This document shows, piece after piece, positions 3,267 to 23,365 of a DNA stretch of 42,237 nucleotides. A program made the translations under genes and the position numbers. This DNA comes from Nitrospirota bacterium (GTDB taxonomy: Bacteria; Nitrospirota; 9FT-COMBO-42-15; HDB-SIOI813). The stretch is taken from NCBI GenBank assembly GCA_023248395.1, contig JAHFEQ010000005.1, positions 1 to 42,237 of the forward strand, written 5' to 3'. Position 1 is the first letter of the stretch. Each line of letters opens with the position of its first letter. Below the pieces are notes generated by a model that saw only the letters and a list, made by a program, of their open reading frames with translations, did no database searches and had not been told where the DNA came from.

Positions 3267-5723
3267 ATGATGCAAAAACTGTTTCACAGATTAAAAAGCG
3301 AGATTATGTTGCTCGATGGTTCTCTGGGTGCCATGCTGCAGTCGAGAGGACTTCCTTCTGGGTATGCCCCCGACTTGTGGAATTTAGAAAGGCCTGAAAT
3401 CATCGTAGAAGTGCATAGAGAATATGTTAATGCGGGTAGCAATATTATTCTGGCAAATACATTCGGATCTACTCGCCTTCGCCTGGCAGAGTATGGTGTT
3501 GAAGGGAGATTAAAAGAGATTAATCAGGAAGCGGTTAAAATAGCCCGTAAGGCTGCTGGAGACAAAGTATTTGTAGCCGGTGATGTTGGCCCATGTGGGG
3601 CAACAATCTTCCCGATCGGTGAGCTATCCTTTGAGGATGCTGTAGACATATTCTCTCAGCAGACAGAAGTATTAGTAAACTCGGGATGTGATTTGATTGT
3701 CATTGAGACGATGTTTGATCTGATTGAGATACGGGCTGCCATCATTGCTGTAAGAAGGGTTTCCAAGAGTATCCCCATTGCTGCACTGATGACATTTACA
3801 CAAGATGGTTTAACAGATACAGGGACTGATCCTGAAACAGCGGCAGTGGTATTAGAGGGATTAGGAGTTGATATCATTGGCGTCAATTGTTCTACTGGAC
3901 CTGCAGAGATGGTTGGAGTTCTGAAAAAGATGGTATTAGCAACGGATGCCTATATCTGTGCAGAACCGAATGCAGGGCTCCCACAAAATATAGGAGGCCG
4001 GACTGTATTCCCTATGTCTGCTGAAGAAATGACTTCCTATGCTGAACAGTTTATAGATGTCGGCGTAAATATATTAGGAGGTTGTTGTGGTACTACCCCT
4101 GAGTATATTCGATTGTTAGCACAAAAGATAAAAGGGAGAAAGCCGGCTCTAAGAAAAGGCTTGGGAGGGCTCAAAATAGCAAGCAGGTCGAAGACTGTCT
4201 ATGTGGGAAGTGGCTTTCCATTTCTTAAGATAGGAGAGAAGATTAATCCTACTGGACGGAAGGCATTAGCTGAGGCCATAAGAGAAGGGCGTATGGATAT
4301 GGTTATAACGGAGGCCAGAGGACAATATGAAGCAGGGGCGATGTCGCTTGATGTGAATGTCGGTGTTCCTATGACGGATGAACCAAGGAGTATGGGACGT
4401 GCAATAGAGTCTATTCAGACGGTTGTGGATATCCCTCTTGTCATAGATAGCTCTGTTATAGAGGCGATCGAAGGGGGGCTTAAGGTGTATGCCGGCAAGG
4501 CTCTTGTAAATAGCGTTAATGCAGAACCTGAACGCATGGAAAAACTATTTCCGATCATAAAAAAATATGGCGCTGCCGTAATAGCCCTTCTTGCCGGACA
4601 TGAAATTCCAGAAACGGCTACTGAGCGATTGAAGAAAGCAGAAAATATTCTTCAACAAGCCCTGTCCTATGGGATAAGAAGAGAGGATATCCTGTTTGAC
4701 TGTTTAGCCCTTACCGTATCAGTAGCCCAGGAGGCCTCGACCCAGACCCTTGAAACTATTCGGCTGATAAAGCAGGAACTTGGTTGTCCTTCAATACTGG
4801 GTGTAAGTAATGTTTCTTTTGGTCTTCCGAATAGGAAGACCATTCATAACACATTTTTAGGGATGGCAATAGGATATGGGTTGGATGCGGCCATTGTTAA
4901 TCCCTATGATCTGGATTTGCATCAGGTGGTATCTGCTGCAAGCCTGTTTGCAGGCAGAGATATTGGTTGTCGAAAATATATAGCCCTTCAAGAGACTTTC
5001 AAAGTAGGTGAGAAGAGAGAAGAGAATAAAGAAGGGGGGGTGACCAAGAAAGAGGTGAGCACAGGGGATAAGATATTTAATGCTGTAGTTGAAGGTGACA
5101 GAGATGGAATAGTGGCCTATGTTAAAAAGGGGCTTGAGGAAGGTATCGATCCGGGAGAGATCTTCCTTGATATTATGACTCCAGCTATAAGGCGTTTGGG
5201 TAATTTATTTGCTGAAAGAAAGAAGTTTATTCCGCATTTAGTGGCTTCTGCAGAGTCCATGAAGCGGGGAGTGGATGTGTTGATTCCTTTTCTGGAAAAA
5301 AAGGGGGTTATAGAGAAGAAGGGTACTATTATCATGGCTACGGTGAAAGGCGACATCCATGACCTTGGTAAGAATATATGCTGCATGATGTTGAGGAACT
5401 TTGGATTTGAGGTTGTAGATCTCGGGAAAAACGTACCTTATGAGGAGATATTAAATGCTGCAGAGAAATATCATGCTCATATTATAGGACTTTCAGCGCT
5501 CATGACCACAACAATGCTGCAGATGAAGACTGTCAGAGATGCTGTACATGAACGAGGACTTCCATATAAAATTATGATAGGGGGGGCAGTAACCACACAG
5601 AGATTTGCGGATGAAATTGGGGTGGACGGATATGCTAAAGATGTTGGCGAAGTGCCCTACGTTGCAGAGAGGTTGATACAAAGACATCCTTCTGTCCGGG
5701 CCAAATGTTCGCTTGACGGGTAG
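3267..5723 (+). CDS. metH: Cobalamin-dependent methionine synthase (Hcy-binding, pterin-binding, cap and B12-binding domains; no activation domain)
   Basis: GVNCS and GGCCGTTP Zn ligands; IGEKINPTG pterin-domain start; GDIHDLGKN B12 motif; GLSALMTTT. Confidence 0.95.
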   Translation: MMQKLFHRLKSEIMLLDGSLGAMLQSRGLPSGYAPDLWNLERPEIIVEVHREYVNAGSNIILANTFGSTRLRLAEYGVEGRLKEINQEAVKIARKAAGDKVFVAGDVGPCGATIFPIGELSFEDAVDIFSQQTEVLVNSGCDLIVIETMFDLIEIRAAIIAVRRVSKSIPIAALMTFTQDGLTDTGTDPETAAVVLEGLGVDIIGVNCSTGPAEMVGVLKKMVLATDAYICAEPNAGLPQNIGGRTVFPMSAEEMTSYAEQFIDVGVNILGGCCGTTPEYIRLLAQKIKGRKPALRKGLGGLKIASRSKTVYVGSGFPFLKIGEKINPTGRKALAEAIREGRMDMVITEARGQYEAGAMSLDVNVGVPMTDEPRSMGRAIESIQTVVDIPLVIDSSVIEAIEGGLKVYAGKALVNSVNAEPERMEKLFPIIKKYGAAVIALLAGHEIPETATERLKKAENILQQALSYGIRREDILFDCLALTVSVAQEASTQTLETIRLIKQELGCPSILGVSNVSFGLPNRKTIHNTFLGMAIGYGLDAAIVNPYDLDLHQVVSAASLFAGRDIGCRKYIALQETFKVGEKREENKEGGVTKKEVSTGDKIFNAVVEGDRDGIVAYVKKGLEEGIDPGEIFLDIMTPAIRRLGNLFAERKKFIPHLVASAESMKRGVDVLIPFLEKKGVIEKKGTIIMATVKGDIHDLGKNICCMMLRNFGFEVVDLGKNVPYEEILNAAEKYHAHIIGLSALMTTTMLQMKTVRDAVHERGLPYKIMIGGAVTTQRFADEIGVDGYAKDVGEVPYVAERLIQRHPSVRAKCSLDG

Positions 5724-9715: not shown

Positions 9716-10879
9716 CTATTCCTTATTCACTGACATGGCCTCTATCAGTATCTTTGCCACCTCTGGACGTGAGAATTCAGGCGGAGGGGTAACACCATTT
9801 TTCAGCATCTCACGGACCTTTGTCCCTGAAAGGGTCACATGCTCACTTGAGTCATGGGGGCAGGTTTTGTATGATGCCATACTTGTGCAACGTTTGCAAT
9901 AGAAGGTGTGGTCAAAAAACATGGGGGTTATCCCAAGCTCTCCATCTTCGAACTCATCAAAGATATAGTGGGCGTCAAAAGTCCCATAATAGTTTCCTAC
10001 GCCGGCATGGTCTCTTCCCACGATAAAATGGGTACAACCATAGTTTTTCCTGCAAATTGCGTGGAAGATAGCCTCTCTTGGTCCTGCATATCTCATAGCG
10101 GCCGGAAAGACGGCCAGGAAAGTACGATCTTTTGGATAGTAGTTTTCAAACAGGGCCTCATAGCAACGCATTCTGATTTCAGCCGAAATATCATCACCCT
10201 TTGTAGCACCCACTAAAGGATGTACAAGGAGACCATCCACAATCTCAAGCGCAGATTTCTGTATATACTCATGGGCACGGTGAATCGGATTCCTTGTTTG
10301 AAATCCTACAACACGCTTCCACCCCTTTTCCTGGAAGATCTTCCTTGTATCAGCCGGGTCAAGACGATACTGAATAAAGTCTTTATGTCTTGGTCTGTGG
10401 AAGAGGCTTATCTTCCCACCGATAAGGATAGGCCCAGAGTCATAGAGTTGTTTTACTCCGGGATGTTCCGGGCTGTCAGTTTTATATACCTCTATTGCCT
10501 CCTTTTCCTTATCATGTGAGTAAATATCTTCTATTAACATCACGGCGAGAGAATTCCCTTCCCCGTCAACTAAGGCTACCTCTTCTTTCATAGATAGGTC
10601 GTTAGCCGTCTCCTCTTTTACAGAAAGGGTGATCGGGATAGACCATGGAAGACCGTTGGCCAGACGCATGGTGTCCACAACAGTATTATAATCATCCCGG
10701 CCCATGAATCCTTCCAATGGACTCATAGCGCCTGTGGCTATCATCTCGAGGTCTGAGATTTCCCTCTTATTTAATTGAAGCTTTTTTAATTCCTTTGCCT
10801 TTAACTCTGATAGTTCACGGTCTTTACCCCGCAGTATCCGGTTGATCAATTTGCCGCCATGTGGTATGGAATGTAGCAT
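9716..10879 (-). CDS. sat: Sulfate adenylyltransferase (Sat-type ATP sulfurylase)
   Basis: [58 protein letters not shown]. Confidence 0.97.
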
Positions 10880-13307: not shown

Positions 13308-13691
13308 TTAGATAGAAAAGTCTACTGCTGCCACGCCTTCTATCTTTTCATCAAGCTCTACCGGAAGCACCTTTGTCCGTATAGTAAAATTGTCTATAGC
13401 GCCCTCGGTATCGATAAGCTCCCATGTTATAAAATCCCTTGTGTCGTGTATATGAGGAAGCAATCTTGCAGTATGAAATCCCAGTTGATAGGAGAGCCTG
13501 AATTCTATAGCCTCCTGCGGGCATACTTTTACACAGGGTAGACAATCCCAGCATTCTGCCGGATCTCTCATAAGGATCTTTCCCGTTTTTGGGTCTTTCA
13601 TTAGAAGGTCCCCCGGGCACATTCTCACGCACGGTGGGTTATGTGATCCATGACATGTATTGCATTTGTCTGCATGTACAACTACTGGCAT
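13308..13691 (-). CDS. aprB: Adenylylsulfate reductase beta subunit (2x[4Fe-4S]), short form
   Basis: CNTC..PPCVRMCP and CWDCLPCVKVCP; GGAGG SD before ATG 13691; follows aprA. Confidence 0.88.
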   Translation of the reverse strand: MPVVVHADKCNTCHGSHNPPCVRMCPGDLLMKDPKTGKILMRDPAECWDCLPCVKVCPQEAIEFRLSYQLGFHTARLLPHIHDTRDFITWELIDTEGAIDNFTIRTKVLPVELDEKIEGVAAVDFSI

Positions 13692-13769
13692 CTTTCTTCC
13701 TCCCTTTTTTATATGATTCCAGAGATTAATCACTGGAATCTTTTTTTACATCTCTATAATCAATCTTTA

Positions 13770-15528: not shown

Positions 15529-15972
15529 TTATATATGATACATTACTGTTTTTTCTTGTTCTCTCTTTTTCTTGTACATATCTTCTATACTTACTTTACT
15601 TAACGCACCTGTAATAGCCCTACGAACATCCTCCCATACTTCCTTAACAACGCATCCATTTATCTGAGGGCACTTGTGCTCAAATGCACCATTAGTGCAG
15701 TCCATCGGGGTTATAGGCCCTTCAATTGCCTCAACTATTTGAGCCACACTAATTGTCCTGGGGTCTCTTGACAATACATAGCCACCTTGTGCTCCACGGA
15801 TGCTTTCTACAAGGCCGGCCTTTTTCAGGGATGCCATGACTTGCTCTAAGAATCTCATCGGAATGGCCTGTCGTCCGGCAATCGCCCTTACATGGACGGG
15901 GCCTTTATCGGCATTAAGGGCCATATCTAAGACTGCTGTGATTGCATAGTCACTTTTAACTGAAAACCGCAT
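15529..15972 (-). CDS. Rrf2-family transcriptional regulator (IscR/CymR-like); alternative TTG start at 15978
   Basis: FLEQVMASLKKAGLVESIRGAQGGY, AIEG, three Cys (CTNGAFEHKCPQINGC), C-terminal MYHI. Confidence 0.93.
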   Translation of the reverse strand: MRFSVKSDYAITAVLDMALNADKGPVHVRAIAGRQAIPMRFLEQVMASLKKAGLVESIRGAQGGYVLSRDPRTISVAQIVEAIEGPITPMDCTNGAFEHKCPQINGCVVKEVWEDVRRAITGALSKVSIEDMYKKKREQEKTVMYHI

Positions 15973-16008: not shown

Positions 16009-16036
16009 ATTATACCAATTATTTTTCCCCTGTCAA
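16009..16036 (-). promoter_or_regulatory. Sigma70 promoter of the sulfate assimilation operon
   Basis: Minus strand TTGACA-N16-TATAAT with extended TG. Confidence 0.8.
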
Positions 16037-16110: not shown

Positions 16111-18363
16111 GTGAATAACTCAGGATTGGGGAAAAAAAAGACGGTTTTATTATTAAGATGGTTAGTTATTATTATTACATCATTTCTCATGCTGTTTTCC
16201 CGGGGGCGTGTCTCCCTGCTGAGTTCCCAGACTTTTATAATTTGCACCCTCCTTTTATCCAATTTAGTCTTAACCTATATACCCGAACATGTTTTCTCAA
16301 AAAAATGGTTTGACTACGTATTCGTTATGATGGATACAGTCTTTGTGTCTTTGGGCATTTACATGACAGGTGACTCCTCATCAGAATTCTACTTAGTCTA
16401 CTTTCTGGTCATTATTGCCACAACCTTTAGTTCTGACCTTAGGACAATAATCCGTAATACCGCGATTGTGAGTGTTGTTTACACTATTATGCTGTTTCAC
16501 AATAGACAATTAGAAGCAGTAATACATGATGAAGGCATCATGTTGAGACCCCCTTTTCTATTTATTATGTCACTGTTTTATGGCTATTTGGCTGAACAGA
16601 CGAGGACTCATTATAGTAAGACTGTAGACCTTGAGGCAGAGAAGAGGAAGTTAGAGATCCTGCTGGAAATAACAAAGAGCGTTTCTTCAACCCTGGATAT
16701 AAAGGAGGTCTTGGGAATAATAGTCAATAAGGTGGCAGGGTATATTCATGTAGACAGATGTTCCATAATTCTTACCGATGGTCAACAAAAACATGGGTAT
16801 GTAGTAGCCTCACATGATGCCCCTGAGATCGACCGACTTGAGATAGACCTAGAAAAATATCCGGAGATATTCAAAGCATTAAAGAGCAATGAGGTTGTCG
16901 TTATTAATGATATAACTGCCGAGCCCCTCATGAGTAATGTACGAGAACTCCTTGACCAGATAAACATAAAATCGCTTTTGGTGATACCTATTGCCTATCA
17001 GGAAGAGGTCATAGGTACACTGTTCTTGAAAATAAGAAGAAAGACCCATGAGTTTTCGACAGAGGAAATAAAATTCTGCCAGGTTGTTGCCAACACATCG
17101 GCAAATGCCCTCAAGAATGCACAATTGTATGAGCAGATAAAACTGCAGGCAAAGACAGACGGACTTACAAAACTTCTTAACCACAGATCTTTTCTTGAAA
17201 GCTATCAGGAAGAGGTGCTTCGTTCAAAGAGAACCAATAACCCCTTTTCAATACTAATGATAGATGTTGATAACTTTAAGTCGATTAACGATTCCTATGG
17301 TCATCAGGAGGGGGACAGTATCCTGTATGAATTAGCCCAATGCTTAAAGGATAATACGAGGGCAATAGATATCGTTGCGCGCTATGGTGGAGATGAGTTT
17401 ATTTGCCTGCTGCCAGAGGCATCCTATGATCAGGGACTCCTGGTGGCAAATAGAATCATGAAAAAGATGAGGGAGCGATTTAAGGAGGGGAATAGAGGGG
17501 TAAGCATTAGTATAGGCATGGCCACCTATTTTTATCACACGGATGATTCTACTGTACTCCTGCAACTTTCAGATCAGGCCATGTATTTGGCAAAGTACAA
17601 AGGTGGGGATCAGATATTCGCATTTGACCCTGCCGATACCCAGAACCTAAGATCCTGGAATAAAAAGGTCTTTGAGACATTTTTTGTTATGAAGACCCTG
17701 AGCCGGTTTGATAATAGTCGGGAAATTACTATGGATTTAACAGAACAATTAAAGAAGATGTTGTCGATAGACTCTTCTCCCCAATCACTCTATGAGATTG
17801 TCACATCCTTAAGCAGTGCCTTAGATGCGCGAGATCACTATACGAATGGCCATTCAGAGCGAGTTATTGAGTATGCAAAAGGGATTGCGAATGAAGTGGG
17901 GATGTCCATGCAGCAGCAGGAGGAGCTTGTATATCTCTGTCTTCTTCATGACATAGGAAAGATAGGGATACCTGACCATATTCTCAATAAGCCGGGGAGG
18001 CTTACACCGGAGGAATTCGAGATTATGAAGCGACACGCAGAAATTGGGGAAAAGATTATATCCCCTCTTGAGGCCCTAAAAAATCTAAAGCCGTTAATAC
18101 GCCACCATCAGGAATATTATGATGGCAGAGGATATCCTGACGGTCTGAGTTGTGAGGCAATACCACTTTCCTGCCGCATCCTCTCCGTAGTGGATACGTT
18201 TGATGCGATGACCACAGACAGGCCTTACCGGAAGGCCCTCCCCATGGAGGCTGCAATCGGTGAACTCAGAAGATTTGCCGGGACGCAGTTTGATCCGAAT
18301 ATCGTAGAAATATTTATCAAAATCTTTGAGAAAGAGGAAGCTGCTGTCAAATCCTCTGCATAA
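16111..18363 (+). CDS. Membrane-bound GAF-GGDEF-HD-GYP c-di-GMP cyclase/phosphodiesterase
   Basis: About 5-6 TM N-terminus, GAF, DVDNFKSINDSYGH, RAID I-site, RYGGDEF, LHDIGK, DGRGYPDGL, DRPYR. Confidence 0.92.
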   Translation: MNNSGLGKKKTVLLLRWLVIIITSFLMLFSRGRVSLLSSQTFIICTLLLSNLVLTYIPEHVFSKKWFDYVFVMMDTVFVSLGIYMTGDSSSEFYLVYFLVIIATTFSSDLRTIIRNTAIVSVVYTIMLFHNRQLEAVIHDEGIMLRPPFLFIMSLFYGYLAEQTRTHYSKTVDLEAEKRKLEILLEITKSVSSTLDIKEVLGIIVNKVAGYIHVDRCSIILTDGQQKHGYVVASHDAPEIDRLEIDLEKYPEIFKALKSNEVVVINDITAEPLMSNVRELLDQINIKSLLVIPIAYQEEVIGTLFLKIRRKTHEFSTEEIKFCQVVANTSANALKNAQLYEQIKLQAKTDGLTKLLNHRSFLESYQEEVLRSKRTNNPFSILMIDVDNFKSINDSYGHQEGDSILYELAQCLKDNTRAIDIVARYGGDEFICLLPEASYDQGLLVANRIMKKMRERFKEGNRGVSISIGMATYFYHTDDSTVLLQLSDQAMYLAKYKGGDQIFAFDPADTQNLRSWNKKVFETFFVMKTLSRFDNSREITMDLTEQLKKMLSIDSSPQSLYEIVTSLSSALDARDHYTNGHSERVIEYAKGIANEVGMSMQQQEELVYLCLLHDIGKIGIPDHILNKPGRLTPEEFEIMKRHAEIGEKIISPLEALKNLKPLIRHHQEYYDGRGYPDGLSCEAIPLSCRILSVVDTFDAMTTDRPYRKALPMEAAIGELRRFAGTQFDPNIVEIFIKIFEKEEAAVKSSA

Positions 18364-20533
18364 CGAGTCGTATCTTTACACTCCACTCCCCGCCCTCGGT
18401 TAAGATAAATTTCCAATGGGGGATAAGCACTGAGCTCTGATATTCCCTTTCAAACCCACTTTCTGATTGTGAGATAGTCTCTACCGGATACCTCCAGAGG
18501 GTACAGCTCTTAGAGAAAGACAGACTTATGTTTGTAGAGATGACCTGATTCTTAATGCCGATGGAGGATACATCTTTGCTCTCTCCTCTGCTTCTCTGAC
18601 AAGAGTCTTCAAGTGAGCCCCCTTCAAGGTAATATTTGCAGAAATCGGAATTTCCATCCAGCATCGCGAAATTAAACTCGGGCCCAAACCAGAGATCAAT
18701 TGTGTCGCCCACTACATTTTTTACATTATAATTAAATTCCATATCAGGGCTTCCACTCACTATCTTTATCTCCTTTGTAATACAGATCCTGTTACTATAA
18801 ACAAGACCTTCACCCTGTAAGATGATAGCCTTCCCATTCCTTAAATCCTTTATAACGGAGACGTAGGGTATGAAGGGAAATCTTCCAAGGTCTTCATATC
18901 TATTTTGTATGACAGAGTCTAATGTAGTACTGTTGCCAAATATATGATCTATTAGCATTCCCTTTCGATATGAATCGTAGTGCAGATAGAGATGCAAATC
19001 GGTCTCTTTGGATCGGGTGATGTCATGAATAGAGTGTGGGGCCTCGCCACTCTGGCCTCTATTATTGTTAGCAAGGACTCTCTTATGGTAGACCTCTGGC
19101 CTTCTGGCAAGGGTATTGAGAAGGTTGTAGGAAGAGGGTCTATAATCCAGTTCTGTTAGCATGCCCCCTTTATGGGTATCCACAACGAAAGATATCTCTG
19201 GCATGGTTACCACTAACTCCTCACTTCCATCACAATCAAAGTCAAAGGCCTCTACTTCAAGCCAGCCCTCTTTGCCAAGCGTTACCTCATCCGCTATCCG
19301 TTCTGCCTTTATAAGGTGCTTATAGACTGCTGCCCTGAGATGTCCCAAGTAGAGTCCCCCAAATATCCCATGCCAATAGGGACAGTTGACCTGCCCACGC
19401 CATAATTCTAAATGGGCTTCATAGATATTCGGGGCAAGACCCTCCCCCTTCCTCGCAACACTTCTTCCTATATGTGCCGGACTTAAGGCCTGGTTATTAC
19501 CCTCTGCAAGTTTTGATACCTTATTGCTTACACGAAGCATCTTCTTATGCATATGATTTGCCTCTGGATATTTTTCAAGGAAATTCCTCCAGAACCCGCC
19601 GCGCAAAAAGGGGACATAAAATCTCTCCTTACCACTTGCCTGTACTTCATTTAAAACCTCTTCAAAAAGATTGCCGCTTTCAGCAGGCAGAGACCATTCC
19701 ATCATCTCTCTATAAGAGGCAGTTGGTACATATACCCTCCCATGGGCACGAATATTTTTATAAATACCGCTTAGGGTAGTTATGTTGATCCAGGAAGATT
19801 CACGGATTAAGGTATCAAGGAATCTCTCAAGCCATCTCTGATTATAGACCCAATTATATGTTTCGGGCCAAAGACCAAACTTTTCTCCATCATCCCCATA
19901 AACCAACACACGATCCCCTTCCTCTGTAGCAAGACTTCGCAAACATTCTATCGTTTCATGAGGTTCTCTAAAGGGGATTGAGTATCGGAGTCTTTCGCTG
20001 GAAGGGAATAAATAGACCACCTTCCCTTCGTCTTCTGTAGAATAGTAACCGTAAAGTTGATGTTCCTGCAGGCCGGCATAACGGAGATGTGTGTCGTCAA
20101 CTATCAGATACCTAACCCCGGCGTCATTCAGGACACTCGGTAGCTGTGGTTCCCATATCCGTTCGGTAAGCCACATCCCTTCAGCCTCTGTATGAAATTT
20201 CTCCCTTATATATTCCGTCAACATACTGATCTGTCCTATACAATCCCTTCGGGGTATCACACATAAGATGGGTTCATAAAACCCTCCGGTCATCATCTCT
20301 ACCTGGCCTTTTGCTACCAGTTCGGCAATCCTTTTCAATAGATCTGGCTTGTTGGCCTCAATCCATTCAAGAAGGCTTCCGGAGTAGTGGAGGGATACCT
20401 TCATTTCCGGATATCTCTCCAGGACGTCTATAAACGGGCTATAGCTTTTCTCATAGGCCTCCTTAAATACATGATCAAAATTGTCCACCGGCTGATGAAA
20501 ATGTAAGGCCATGGCGAAGTTAATCTTTTTCAT
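18347..20533 (-). CDS. GH57 alpha-amylase/4-alpha-glucanotransferase
   Basis: HFHQP, GGFYEPIL, WLTERIWEP, GDDGEKFG, YWHGIFGGLY; C-terminal ETISQSESGFEREYQ. Confidence 0.93.
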   Translation of the reverse strand: MKKINFAMALHFHQPVDNFDHVFKEAYEKSYSPFIDVLERYPEMKVSLHYSGSLLEWIEANKPDLLKRIAELVAKGQVEMMTGGFYEPILCVIPRRDCIGQISMLTEYIREKFHTEAEGMWLTERIWEPQLPSVLNDAGVRYLIVDDTHLRYAGLQEHQLYGYYSTEDEGKVVYLFPSSERLRYSIPFREPHETIECLRSLATEEGDRVLVYGDDGEKFGLWPETYNWVYNQRWLERFLDTLIRESSWINITTLSGIYKNIRAHGRVYVPTASYREMMEWSLPAESGNLFEEVLNEVQASGKERFYVPFLRGGFWRNFLEKYPEANHMHKKMLRVSNKVSKLAEGNNQALSPAHIGRSVARKGEGLAPNIYEAHLELWRGQVNCPYWHGIFGGLYLGHLRAAVYKHLIKAERIADEVTLGKEGWLEVEAFDFDCDGSEELVVTMPEISFVVDTHKGGMLTELDYRPSSYNLLNTLARRPEVYHKRVLANNNRGQSGEAPHSIHDITRSKETDLHLYLHYDSYRKGMLIDHIFGNSTTLDSVIQNRYEDLGRFPFIPYVSVIKDLRNGKAIILQGEGLVYSNRICITKEIKIVSGSPDMEFNYNVKNVVGDTIDLWFGPEFNFAMLDGNSDFCKYYLEGGSLEDSCQRSRGESKDVSSIGIKNQVISTNISLSFSKSCTLWRYPVETISQSESGFEREYQSSVLIPHWKFILTEGGEWSVKIRLVMQRI

Positions 20534-20543
20534 GTCTATTCAC

Positions 20544-20819
20544 TTATCTCCTAACCTCAAATATCATAAATTCACCTTTATATGACTCAATATGTATTTC
20601 TACAGATTTAACGACTGCCCGTGGAGGACCTGCATGGCACCATTGGACCAGACTATCGATATCTTTCTTTTCACCTTCTGCAACCACCTCTACACGGCCA
20701 TCCGGAAGATTTGTAACATATCCAGTAAGCCCCCTGGCTTGCGCCACCTCTCTGGTTGAATCTCTGAAAAATACACCCTGAACTATGCCGCTTATGTGAA
20801 GATGAAGCCGTGTTTTCAT
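20544..20819 (-). CDS. acyP: Acylphosphatase
   Basis: GIVQGVFFR, GYVTNLPDGRVE, GPPRA. Confidence 0.93.
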   Translation of the reverse strand: MKTRLHLHISGIVQGVFFRDSTREVAQARGLTGYVTNLPDGRVEVVAEGEKKDIDSLVQWCHAGPPRAVVKSVEIHIESYKGEFMIFEVRR

Positions 20820-21844
20820 CCAAAGAAGGTCTCTGCTATCTCATAGATATCCATGTCTATTGTCTTTGACCGTTTTATTCCCTCCTCAAGGCTGACCGCC
20901 ACGATCTGATTTCCCCTGAGGGCAACCATCTTCCCAAAGTCCCTTTTCTGGATGAGGTCAACGGCTGCAATCCCATAACGGGTGGCGAGTATTCTGTCAA
21001 AAGCGGTAGGACTCCCTCCGCGTTGAAGATGTCCTAATACCACATCCCTGCACTCAAACCCCGTCTTCTTCTCTATCGTTTCACATAAGAATTTGCCGAT
21101 GCCCCCAAGCTGGACGTGTCCAAAGGCATCTGTCTTCGTATCCCTTGTGATCATCTTTTCCGCCTCTGCTAAGACAGCGCCTTCTGCCACAACGATGATA
21201 CTAAATGTCTTACCAACGCTATGCCTCCTCTTTATGCTATCGCAGACCTCCTCGATTGTGAAAGGTTTCTCCGGGATAAGGATATAGTCTGCACCACCTG
21301 CAAGGCCGCCATAGGTCGCAATCCATCCTGCATGTCTTCCCATAACCTCCACTACAAGGACTCTATGGTGTGATTCTGCCGTGCTGTGGAGGTTATCGAG
21401 GGCATTCATCACAATATTGACCGCAGAGTCAAAGCCAAATGTAAAATCGGTGGCTGAGAGGTCGTTATCTATTGTCTTGGGTATCCCTATGGTATTAACC
21501 CCCATACCGTATAATTTATAGGCGACACCGAGGGTGTCATCTCCCCCAATGGCTACCAGGACATCGATCTCCAGTTGTTTTATATTCTCTATAGCCTTCT
21601 GTGGTCCATCTGCTGTTGCAAAGGGGTTTGTCCTGGATGTGCCGAGTATCGTGCCGCCTAAGTGAAGTATTCCTGAGGCCTTCTCTGAATCCAGGGTTTC
21701 ATAATTGAGATTCAGTAGCCCCTTCCATCCATCCCGGATGCCTACGACCTGATACCCCAATTTTAGTGATCTTTTCACCACAGCCCTGATAGCAGGGTTA
21801 AGCCCGGGGCAATCACCACCACCTGTGAGTATGCCGATCTTCAC
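20816..21844 (-). CDS. pfkA: 6-phosphofructokinase (PfkA family, group III-like; PPi-type signature)
   Basis: TGGGDCPG, GGTILGTSR, GGDDT, PKTIDND, MGRHAG, LGHLQRGG. Confidence 0.93.
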   Translation of the reverse strand: MKIGILTGGGDCPGLNPAIRAVVKRSLKLGYQVVGIRDGWKGLLNLNYETLDSEKASGILHLGGTILGTSRTNPFATADGPQKAIENIKQLEIDVLVAIGGDDTLGVAYKLYGMGVNTIGIPKTIDNDLSATDFTFGFDSAVNIVMNALDNLHSTAESHHRVLVVEVMGRHAGWIATYGGLAGGADYILIPEKPFTIEEVCDSIKRRHSVGKTFSIIVVAEGAVLAEAEKMITRDTKTDAFGHVQLGGIGKFLCETIEKKTGFECRDVVLGHLQRGGSPTAFDRILATRYGIAAVDLIQKRDFGKMVALRGNQIVAVSLEEGIKRSKTIDMDIYEIAETFFG

Positions 21845-21868
21845 CGATATAATCCTCCTTTTGATTTT

Positions 21869-23365
21869 TTATCTTTGCTCTTTAATTTTCCCCCGTACCT
21901 TCTTATATAGCTTTACATATTCCCCTGCGGAACGCTTCCATGAGAAGTCGGATTTCATGCCACTCGTGATTAATCTCTTCCACCGGGCCTTGTCTCCATA
22001 AACAGAGAGCGCAAGGAGGATTGCCTTTAATAAATCCTCTGCGCTGTAATGGTTGAATAGAAAACCTGTAGTCCTGTCCATAGCTATATTGGAGGGGGTA
22101 TAATCTATTATTGTATCCGCAAGCCCCCCGGTCTTATGGGCTACAGGCACAGTGCCATATCTGAAGCTGTAGAGTTGGTTCAGACCACATGGCTCGTATT
22201 TAGAGGGGAGGAGGAAGATATCAGCCCCCGCCTCTATCTTGCGTGCCAGGGTATCATCAAAAAATAGATTAACAGATATCTTCGTTGGGTATTTTGTTGC
22301 AAACCTCTTTAAGATATCCTGGTATTTGGGCCTGCCTGTGCCCAGTATAACCATCTGAATCTCTAACTGCATGAGTTCATCCATGATCTTTATCAGGATG
22401 TCAAAACCTTTCTGGTCGTCTAATCTCGATACAATACCTATGATTGGGACATCTTTTATTGTTAATCCACAGTTTTTCTGGAGGTCTCTCTTGCATATCT
22501 TTTTCCGGGAGGTCGACTTGAGACTGTACCGTGCAGCAATATGTTTATCGATCGAAGGGTCCCACTCCTTATAATCAACCCCATTCAGGATACCGTAGAG
22601 GTCACCTCTCCTTGCCTGAAGCACCCCATGAAGTCCATGACCCAACTCTTCTGTCTGTATCTCTTGACTGTAGGTAGGACTGACTGTATTGACAATATCA
22701 GAGAAGAGGATACCCCCTTTGAGGAGGTTTATTTTTCCGTAGAATTCAAGCCCATTCATATTGAATACAGTCCATCTAAGGCCAGTAAGGGGGAATTTAT
22801 CTCCCATAAATAGCCCCTGATAACCTAAGTTGTGGATAGTAAAGAGGGTGCCACAACTTTTGTAAAAATCTATTAGATCTTTGTCCTCTTTTACCATCGC
22901 TTTTAAGTACACTGGAATAAGCGATGTCTGCCAATCATTACAGTGGATGATGTCAGGCTTCCAACCCAACTTTTTGATCGTGTAGAGTACAGCCATGGAA
23001 AAGAAGGTGAATCGTTCAAGATTGTCCGCATAATCATTTCCATCTTCCTGGTAGAGTCCTTTCCTGTTAAAATATTTATCATGGGATACGAAGTAGACAG
23101 GGACGCTGGTATTGGGTAACCGGCTTTCATAAAGCCCGCCTTCTTCACTCCGCTCCCCTATTCTTATTGGGAGTGATTCTACGATCTTTCCCAATTTGTC
23201 GGACGTATCTGACGGTCTCGCATATCCCGGTGTAATAACCCTGATGTCGCAACCGATTTCTTTGAGGGCCCTGGGCAGGCCGCTTGACACATCTCCTAAC
23301 CCTCCTGTCTTAGAAAAGGGGGTTACTTCAGACGAGCAGTATAGTATATTTAGCCTCTTAGTCAT
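21869..23365 (-). CDS. glgA: Glycogen synthase
   Basis: KTGGLGDV, HCNDWQ, TIHNLGYQG, NTVSPTY, PSKYEPCGLNQL, TGGLADT. Confidence 0.96.
   Translation of the reverse strand: MTKRLNILYCSSEVTPFSKTGGLGDVSSGLPRALKEIGCDIRVITPGYARPSDTSDKLGKIVESLPIRIGERSEEGGLYESRLPNTSVPVYFVSHDKYFNRKGLYQEDGNDYADNLERFTFFSMAVLYTIKKLGWKPDIIHCNDWQTSLIPVYLKAMVKEDKDLIDFYKSCGTLFTIHNLGYQGLFMGDKFPLTGLRWTVFNMNGLEFYGKINLLKGGILFSDIVNTVSPTYSQEIQTEELGHGLHGVLQARRGDLYGILNGVDYKEWDPSIDKHIAARYSLKSTSRKKICKRDLQKNCGLTIKDVPIIGIVSRLDDQKGFDILIKIMDELMQLEIQMVILGTGRPKYQDILKRFATKYPTKISVNLFFDDTLARKIEAGADIFLLPSKYEPCGLNQLYSFRYGTVPVAHKTGGLADTIIDYTPSNIAMDRTTGFLFNHYSAEDLLKAILLALSVYGDKARWKRLITSGMKSDFSWKRSAGEYVKLYKKVRGKIKEQR

Follow-up and report, generated by a model that had tools for sequence, protein, structure and literature searches.

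An aprB-like gene on the minus strand of a 42,237-nt stretch of a Nitrospirota genome (positions 1 to 42,237 of contig JAHFEQ010000005.1, assembly GCA_023248395.1; hereafter the window) raises the question of why the iron-sulfur subunit of a sulfate-reduction enzyme should end in the residues DFSI. The original prediction, made from the sequence alone, read this end as a tail that inserts into the active site of the O-acetylserine sulfhydrylase CysK and so might tie the reductase to cysteine demand. Our comparisons showed that the conservation of the AprB tail among Nitrospirota orthologues is far above chance; docking into the CysK of the same genome may account for it, and this reading is weighed below against other possible roles of the tail.

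Conservation of the AprB tail

The minus strand from 13370 to 13308, which begins with GTG CTT CCG and ends with GAC TTT TCT ATC TAA, reads VLPVELDEKIEGVAAVDFSI followed by the stop codon, and the end of AprB is therefore the one predicted. We assigned the start of aprB to the ATG at 13691, giving a protein of 127 amino acids (aa), because all homologues start with MPV and the sequence GGGAGG lies 7 nt 5' of this codon; the listed open reading frame (ORF) began at a GTG at 13733. The eight Cys residues for two [4Fe-4S] clusters (C10, C13, C21, C25, C47, C50, C53, and C57) and Trp48 are invariant or nearly so, and the aprA gene for the adjoining flavoprotein ends 36 nt upstream of aprB. The role of that Trp, between the cluster and flavin adenine dinucleotide (FAD), is given in the legend to Fig. 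4 of PMC10322725.

Two sets of orthologues were compared. A word-index search of metagenome sequences yielded 25 clusters with 54-91% identity to the window's AprB, and a scan of genomes, one per species, yielded 54 loci, from which five weak ferredoxin hits (L062-L066) were excluded. Of the 49 Nitrospirota loci with the same operon that were kept, three were cut at a contig end (L059-L061), leaving 46 complete aprB genes. The last residue, with its free carboxylate, was Ile in all 25 metagenome clusters, each of which had an [FY]-x-Ile end, and in 46/46 complete genes. Among these 46 genes, position -3 was Phe in 42 and Tyr in 4, position -2 was Ser in 43 and Ala in 3, and position -4 was Asp in 45 and Gln in 1, whereas positions -5 and -6 each held five to seven different residues; the total length ranged from 126 to 128 aa and the linker sequence varied. 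The tail is thus built of a conserved LPVELDEK.EG segment, a variable four-residue linker, and an invariant [DE]-[FY]-[SA]-I end. In its first half, T106, K107, L113, D114, E115, and G119 were invariant. In these alignments a fixed end follows a variable leash, a pattern that marks a docking peptide. Two conditions under which the original prediction would have been refuted were checked, and both outcomes favoured it: the genome encodes a CysK (described below), and the terminal Ile, invariant in orthologues with this type of operon, is absent from AprB of dissimilatory length. An AlphaFold2 model of AprB alone was poor (mean predicted local distance difference test score [pLDDT] of 54), and residues 108-127 had pLDDT values below 50 and no secondary structure.

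Such ends are infrequent in the genome itself. In a crude ORF set covering the whole 2.0-Mb genome, 94 of 1754 ORFs ended in Ile and 11 in [FYW]-x-I; two of these 11 lie in the five-gene operon of the window, namely those for AprB and the Rrf2 regulator (VMYHI). Three other sizeable ORFs with an [FY]-x-I end were seen, on contig 110 (27480-28892; ..LYFDI, 470 aa), contig 118 (2749-4095; ..KEYDI, 448 aa, with a response-regulator-like start), and contig 42 (18713-20113; ..SRYVI, 466 aa), and these may be due to chance.

Three loci carry aprB without an adjoining aprA. These lone genes (L039 7977-8387, L040 7992-8387, and L044 7992-8387) have intact tails (..IDFAI or ..VDFSI), and in L039 and L040 an acyl-CoA dehydrogenase-like gene precedes them. 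In two of these genomes aprA is on another contig with no aprB beside it; in the third, whose assembly is incomplete, no aprA above 30% identity was found.

Type of enzyme

Among solved structures, the alpha subunit was closest to 8A8O_A (E 1.3e-192, 644.5 bits), compared with E 1.5e-120 and 406.5 bits for 1JNR_A; it scored above the cut-off of NF005331 and below that of the classical aprA model. The beta subunit matched 8A8O_C (E 4.1e-13), 3GYX_B, and 1JNR_B. The Methanothermococcus thermolithotrophicus reductase for 3'-phosphoadenosine 5'-phosphosulfate (PAPS) is described in the consulted part of PMC10322725 as an alpha2beta2 assimilatory enzyme with the architecture of a dissimilatory adenosine 5'-phosphosulfate (APS) reductase. 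On these matches, the enzyme of the window belongs with the assimilatory AprAB-like (P)APS reductases of the 8A8O type and not with the dissimilatory APS reductases. The label of APS reductase in the original prediction thus needs narrowing: an AprAB-like (P)APS reductase is encoded, but not a classical AprBA, since AprB scored below the TIGR02060 cut-off and 8A8O_A is the nearest relative of the alpha subunit. The operon, in the order Rrf2-aprA-aprB-sir/tusA-sat on the minus strand, is compact and constitutes an assimilatory route from sulfate to sulfide around this reductase.

The window's enzyme shares with 8A8O the alpha-subunit match and an assimilatory context with the ATP sulfurylase Sat. 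The two differ in the sulfite reductase, which is a Sir-TusA fusion in the window and Fsr in the methanogen, and in the beta subunit: that of the methanogen has 104 aa and no tail, whereas the alignment with the window's 127-aa protein stops at window residue 107. Compared with the nearest enzyme that has been characterised, the window's AprB is thus extended by its last 20 residues. Dissimilatory AprB (1JNR_B and 3GYX_B) resembles the window's AprB in its two-cluster ferredoxin domain, the Trp48 equivalent, the beta-sheet segment, and the presence of a C-terminal extension; however, its tail is longer and unrelated, and no last residue is conserved among its representatives. At the position of Archaeoglobus fulgidus Gln145, which would clash with the 3'-phosphate of PAPS, the residue is Asn in the window (GRWNIKI), Ser in the methanogen (GKRSIKI), and Gln in A. 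fulgidus (GQWQIMI); the substrate of the window's enzyme may be either APS or PAPS. An APS kinase gene is located elsewhere in the genome; the operon has none.

Likeness to known CysK ligands

CysK moonlights with proteins that place a C-terminal Ile in its active site, and its known clients of this kind are the serine acetyltransferase CysE, the regulator CymR, a nematode hydroxylase, and a contact-dependent toxin. The toxin, CdiA-CT, is activated by CysK through its C-terminal ..GYGI, and PDB entry 5J43, which was among the matches of the CysK of our genome, is presumably the CdiA-CT/CysK structure. CdiA-CT and, as proposed here, AprB have in common that each, though not related to CysE, acquired a CysE-like tail with a terminal Ile by which it can use CysK; CdiA-CT is an interbacterial toxin, however, and AprB part of a housekeeping redox enzyme.

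The residues DFSI are the native C-terminal tetrapeptide of Mycobacterium tuberculosis CysE, crystallised in CysK1 (2Q3C), as the consulted part of PMC9547175 states, and the original prediction was right on this point. In the same source, most of the binding energy of the Haemophilus influenzae tail GIDDGMNLNI comes from the terminal Ile. Crystal structures of Staphylococcus aureus CysK with the CysE end ..DDYII and the CymR end ..GYMFYI are reported in a preprint consulted in part (bioRxiv 10.1101/2024.09.19.614015), with a dissociation constant of 25 nM for CymR; there, T73, N76, T77, and Q145 contact the carboxylate, F146 and T181 the Ile, and M124, I128, and F146 the aromatic residue. Compared with the cysteine synthase complex, in which the CysE tail sits in CysK as in 2Q3C, the window offers a free terminal Ile, an identical DFSI, a tail on a pathway enzyme, and a CysK with the carboxylate-binding loop and hydrophobic channel. 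It differs in that the carrier is not the acetyltransferase but an iron-sulfur subunit, that of a reductase acting three steps upstream, in that its own CysE has no terminal Ile, and in that the docking of AprB is predicted.

CysK and CysE in the host genome

As the original prediction noted, cysK is not in the window; a bona fide CysK is encoded elsewhere in the genome (TIGR01139, 449 bits against a cut-off of 350.95). Its best solved relatives were 2EGU, 8SRT, and M. tuberculosis CysK1 (355.6 bits, the chain of 2Q3C). We took 8SRT to be S. aureus CysK because its residue numbers fit the preprint (10.1101/2024.09.19.614015). In the alignment to 8SRT, the genome's CysK retained 8/8 core peptide contacts (T73, N76, T77, Q145, F146, T181, M124, and I128), and three peripheral ones differed. 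The genome that carries the tail thus has a CysK with the contact residues and not only a CysM-type enzyme. A model of CysK alone had a mean pLDDT of 83.

Another enzyme of the CysK fold in the genome was closest to M. tuberculosis CysM (3DWG), an O-phosphoserine sulfhydrylase. M. tuberculosis CysM accepts a protein C-terminus, that of CysO, into its active site. The cysK gene itself (L001 1471-2400) lies in a cluster on contig 26 (L001 1217-3834; L067 6112-10666) with genes for a ThiS-like protein (..MGGGVR), a ThiF/MoeB protein, a ThrC-like pyridoxal 5'-phosphate (PLP) enzyme that has a zinc ribbon at its N-terminus (partly masked), another ThiF, and a Prok-JAB protease. In some metagenome homologues, of 373 aa, ThiS and CysK are fused. 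This parts list resembles mec-cysO-cysM of M. tuberculosis, here with a CysK-type enzyme, and the sulfur for CysK may come from a thiocarboxylated protein that likewise puts its C-terminus into the cleft.

The CysE of the genome (TIGR01172, 247.7 bits) ends in ..NQIRGLK, without a terminal Ile. It is a short form of 211 aa (contig 83, L006 1363-1998, minus strand) with a helical-looking C-terminal extension, ..RIERIEKELEEIKNQIRGLK, and four related genomes have a similar one. All five CysE proteins found in DFSI-type Nitrospirota genomes, our own and these four, lacked the terminal Ile; in one further DFSI-type genome no CysE was found. In these genomes the CysK cleft would therefore be free of its usual client. 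One Ile-tailed genome outside this group, with AprB ending in ..VDQGMGI, has a CysE ending in ..EAPKA.

The Rrf2 regulator of the operon

The first gene of the operon encodes an Rrf2 regulator whose end, ..VMYHI, has the aromatic-x-Ile form of the CysK-bound S. aureus tail ..YMFYI, and the similarity to the AprB tail that the original prediction had pointed out extends to its homologues. Of the 120 homologues listed among 252 hits, 114 ended in Ile and 99 in MYHI; other ends were MFHI, MYYI, and, in Firmicutes-like members, ..GYMYYI. In the Nitrospirota loci, 38/38 of the Rrf2 genes located upstream of aprA had an [FY]-x-I end, of the form M-[YF]-H-I. The regulator aligned to the last position of the CymR model NF047409, at 111.8 bits against a cut-off of 195, and scored 121.4 bits against the cut-off of 207.55 of the IscR model. 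It resembles the CymR-CysK system of Firmicutes in that its M-Y-H-I can be aligned with M-F-Y-I and the CymR model is matched to its end; it differs in scoring below the CymR cut-off, in having three Cys residues typical of cluster-binding Rrf2 proteins, and in its Nitrospirota host, and the likeness concerns the regulator and not AprB. These Cys residues, arranged as MDC-x8-C-x5-C as in iron-sulfur Rrf2 regulators, raise the possibility that the protein responds to a cluster as well as to CysK. On the model of the S. aureus mechanism, we read it as a putative CysK-dependent repressor of the operon; our literature search found no description of such a repressor in Nitrospirota.

Ile-ended tails in the wider AprB family

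When 1.84 billion representatives were searched with a profile, 504 relatives of AprB were obtained at E <=0.001, and the ends of the best 150 were inspected. Most of these 150 were proteins of 100-115 aa without a tail, and members of dissimilatory length (145-160 aa) had no common end. Four tailed representatives ended in ..DSGATI, ..YSGDGI, ..DQGMGI, and ..DLGLDI. A Tyr end was seen in 21 of the 150 (P0225, P0238, P0248, P0249, P0252, P0258, and others), typically as ..SN[KQR]Y with the conserved form ..[SA]N.Y, mostly in proteins of about 104 aa, the size of the beta subunit in the methanogen.

A second genome scan gave 117 relatives, of which 80 loci were kept: 13 with Ile-ended tails, 19 from Polyangiales with ..PPF.P.L, 17 of the Leptospirillum type with ..VPEELL.., 26 short, and 5 other. 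The 13 comprised one from Deferrisomatales (..SGDGI), two from Thermodesulfobacteriota (..LGKDI), three from uncultured bacteria (..VDQGMGI), and six from Melainabacteria and one from a gammaproteobacterium (..DLGx[DG]I). An Ile end was present in 59/59 complete AprB-like proteins of 125-144 aa. As sequences, the 13 Ile-ended tails that are not of the DFSI kind resemble CysE ends; ..[FY]VDQGMGI of AprB, for example, is similar to ..[FY]IHGMGI of CysE. Neither the Ile-tailed loci of Melainabacteria nor the high-GC ones had interpretable neighbouring genes.

In a tree of AprA (113 rows; FastTree, with a midpoint root and without a dissimilatory AprA outgroup; one group drew a long-branch warning), the Ile-tailed lineages fell into three separate, well-supported clades, and the DFSI clade was sister to the Leptospirillum-type clade. 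An approximately unbiased (AU) test on 39 chosen rows rejected a single Ile-tailed clade (p 0.0003), and the tail was therefore either gained more than once or lost repeatedly. Repeated gain is favoured because the Ile tails differ in sequence and length.

In the sister clade, which contains Leptospirillum and hot-spring Nitrospirota, AprB stops past an LPVEL-like segment, with the end ..RVPEELL plus 1-4 residues and without Ile; the nearby Rrf2 gene is on the opposite strand, and its product also lacks a terminal Ile (..GQPRYH or ..QPLHHKG). The Polyangiales operon consists of Rrf2 (..YVY[VA]I), CysK, a gap, a CysM-like PLP enzyme (..MRWEKHYEW), AprA, and AprB. Its AprB, of 113 aa, ends in ..G.PPF.P.L, with Leu rather than Ile, and thus carries a second conserved AprB tail, in this case close to cysK itself.

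Possible roles of the tail

Docking of the AprB tail into the CysK of this genome is a reading to which we give roughly an even chance. It is favoured because DFSI is identical to the M. tuberculosis CysE peptide, the tail is conserved, Ile-ended tails recur on AprB, the Rrf2 regulator has a CymR-type tail, the CysK pocket is retained, and CysE lacks the Ile. The proposal that such docking couples (P)APS reduction to O-acetylserine, and possibly repression of the CymR type as well, could likewise go either way. The binding of CysK to AprB, its sensitivity to O-acetylserine, and any effects on activity or transcription are what we infer from the comparisons above; a complex prediction with CysK and AprB residues 93-127 gave scores of 0.25 and 0.02 against a mark of 0.32, was run without controls, and speaks neither for nor against binding.

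In the proposed mechanism, the LPVELDEK.EG part of the tail would probably rest on the enzyme, and the remainder would form a short flexible linker ending in [DE]-[FY]-[SA]-Ile-COOH. This end would enter the active-site cleft of CysK as the tails of CysE, CymR, and CdiA-CT do, with the Ile carboxylate at the substrate-carboxylate site and the aromatic residue in the hydrophobic channel. O-acetylserine, which uses the same site, would break the complex, and the activity or availability of the reductase and CysK would thereby be coupled to the supply of the sulfide acceptor. AprB and the CymR-like repressor would share the cleft and thus compete for CysK. Since the alpha2beta2 enzyme would present two tails and the CysK dimer two clefts, a defined complex is plausible. 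Possible outcomes are that the production of sulfite and sulfide would be restrained when the acceptor is short, that CysK would be inhibited as in the cysteine synthase complex, or that the tail would compete with the repressor.

A broader scheme, which we consider rather doubtful, would make CysK an O-acetylserine-gated hub whose single cleft is contested by several tails: those of the CymR-like repressor, AprB, and possibly the ThiS-like sulfur carrier whose gene adjoins cysK. When O-acetylserine is scarce, the repressor would be held on the operon and the reductase clamped; when it rises, both would be released, and newly made AprB would titrate CysK and lock the operon on. In the same scheme, phyla unrelated to one another would have acquired the Ile tail on AprB separately, on at least two or three occasions.

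Several observations weigh against docking into CysK. The leash between the conserved G119 and the motif is only 4-5 residues long, so that CysK would need to sit tight on the enzyme. A tail on AprB has a precedent that does not involve CysK, in that the tail of dissimilatory AprB reportedly lies on AprA. The Polyangiales tails (n=19) and the ..VPEELL.. tails (n=17) are conserved without a terminal Ile; AprB extensions therefore need not share one role. CysK scored above the cut-off in 9/10 other Ile-tailed genomes, the tenth having only a match below it, and was also found in 5/5 genomes of the tail-less sister clade, so its presence does not discriminate. In two Ile-tailed genomes, from Melainabacteria and the gammaproteobacterium, a CysE ending in ..HGMGI is encoded beside cysK, which places Ile on both proteins, and CysE also lacked the Ile in four control genomes without an AprB Ile tail. 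For these last two reasons we rejected the idea that the AprB tail is a general substitute for a missing CysE tail: it holds in Nitrospirota (5/5) and in one other genome and fails as a rule. Finally, the group used in the AU test was named after the first tree had been seen, and FastTree flagged long branches.

The tail might instead be an internal part of the enzyme. It would then pack against AprA, where a pocket of the alpha subunit would anchor the terminal Ile and the aromatic residue, and it would stabilise the heterodimer or shield the clusters without any outside partner. Dissimilatory AprB, at 150-166 aa, also extends C-terminally past its ferredoxin and beta-sheet parts, and in the A. 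fulgidus structure papers its tail is said to wrap AprA; the first half of the window's tail is invariant, as in a packed segment, and the linker to the motif is short. We nevertheless think such packing unlikely, given that the closest solved enzyme assembles as alpha2beta2 without a tail, that the linker sequence and total length vary among the orthologues, and that representatives of dissimilatory length lack a common end. Moreover, each of the three AprA clades would need an Ile pocket of its own, whereas CysK already has one and takes DFSI, ..MNLNI, and ..YMFYI.

Recruitment of some other partner seems improbable to much the same degree. Candidates would be the electron donor, the Sir-TusA protein, or a PLP enzyme of the CysK fold, either of the CysM/O-phosphoserine sulfhydrylase type or the ThrC-like enzyme of the thiS cluster. 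The genome does encode a CysM-like enzyme, nearest to 3DWG, whose relative reportedly takes the CysO C-terminus, and a CysM-like gene lies directly before aprA in the Polyangiales operons. The consulted part of PMC10322725 does not name the electron donor of this enzyme class, methyl viologen having been used in the assay. However, most DFSI-type loci lack Sir-TusA and yet keep the AprB tail, and the variants of the motif closely match known CysK clients. To our knowledge, neither ferredoxin nor thioredoxin docks by a terminal Ile. A degradation or sorting signal common to AprB and Rrf2, such as a C-terminal degron read by a cytoplasmic protease that would give the two proteins a joint turnover, is very improbable: hydrophobic C-terminal residues can reportedly act as degrons, and the feature is common to two proteins of one operon, but the CymR-type end has a demonstrated receptor in CysK, the motif reportedly falls outside the known classes of bacterial C-terminal degrons, and the CysE-like variants ..GDGI and ..GMGI have no precedent as degrons.

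Operon layout and neighbouring genes

The features of the operon and of the loci compared with it are collected in Table 1. The gene for the Sir-TusA protein begins 26 nt downstream of aprB. In this protein, a TusA sulfur-carrier domain is joined to the sulfite reductase hemoprotein via a linker of about 170 residues, and the fusion suggests that the reduced sulfur is passed on in protein-bound form and not freed as sulfide. In many Nitrospirota operons, a TauE/SafE-family membrane protein of about 300 aa is encoded between the Rrf2 gene and aprA; the operon of the window has none.

The divergent neighbour of the operon encodes a membrane GAF-GGDEF-HD-GYP protein (16111-18363, plus strand). 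A gene for a cobalamin-dependent methionine synthase lies upstream (3267-5723, plus strand), and a glycogen gene set lies downstream (18347-23365, minus strand), with ORFs for a GH57 enzyme and for acylphosphatase-like, phosphofructokinase-like, and glycogen synthase-like proteins, the last three named by eye only.

Table 1. Positions of the operon features in the window and of compared loci (L, locus number)
Feature	Position	Strand	Basis or details
Promoter-like site, 5' of the Rrf2 gene	16009..16036	-	TTGACA, 16 nt, TATAAT with TG; sigma-70-like; 12/12 matches; consensus scan only
CymR-like Rrf2 regulator, 147 aa from MRFSV, end ..KTVMYHI	15529..15972	-	PF02082, 139.6 bits
AprA-like FAD alpha subunit, 572 aa	13770..15488	-	NF005331, 776.8 bits (cut-off 557)
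AprB-like beta subunit, 127 aa	13308..13691	-	Fer4 families; TIGR02060 aprB, 68.7 bits (cut-off 135.65)
C-terminal tail of the AprB-like subunit, VLPVELDEKIEGVAAVDFSI plus stop	13308..13370	-	Sequence, conservation
Sulfite reductase hemoprotein with C-terminal TusA fusion, 789 aa	10912..13281	-	NIR_SIR, 198.6 bits; NIR_SIR_ferr, 136.6 bits; TusA, 73.5 bits
ATP sulfurylase (Sat), 387 aa, at the end of the operon	9716..10879	-	PF01747, 341.5 bits; NF003166, 585.8 bits (cut-off 387)
TauE/SafE-family gene in other Nitrospirota operons	L019 5221-6189; L021 5188-6156; L050 5298-6194; L055 4357-5274		PF01925, 90 bits in L050
Polyangiales loci	L099, L105, L106, L108, L112, L119, L124, L128, L129, L134, L142, L143, L147, others		
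Sister-clade loci	L083, L093, L096-L098, L101-L103, L111, L113, L118, L120, L122, L126, L127, L130, L132		

Implications

The 8A8O-type enzyme family was recognised only in 2023. Our full-text literature search, the scope of which did not extend to subscription-only papers or to the supplements of PMC10322725 (which may show beta-subunit ends), found no title or abstract in which an APS reductase, AprB, or any other sulfate-reduction enzyme was described as the carrier of a CysK-docking tail. The docking of C-terminal Ile tails into CysK is already established; AprB as their carrier would be new. The prediction can be tested cheaply with a synthetic peptide and recombinant CysK. If it is true, a redox enzyme of sulfate reduction would represent a new class of CysK client, and the tail would provide the first post-translational link between the reductive branch, from which sulfite and sulfide, both toxic, arise, and the availability of the carbon acceptor. 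The hosts in which this link would operate are abundant uncultured Nitrospirota of groundwater and sediment, including manganese-oxidising relatives.

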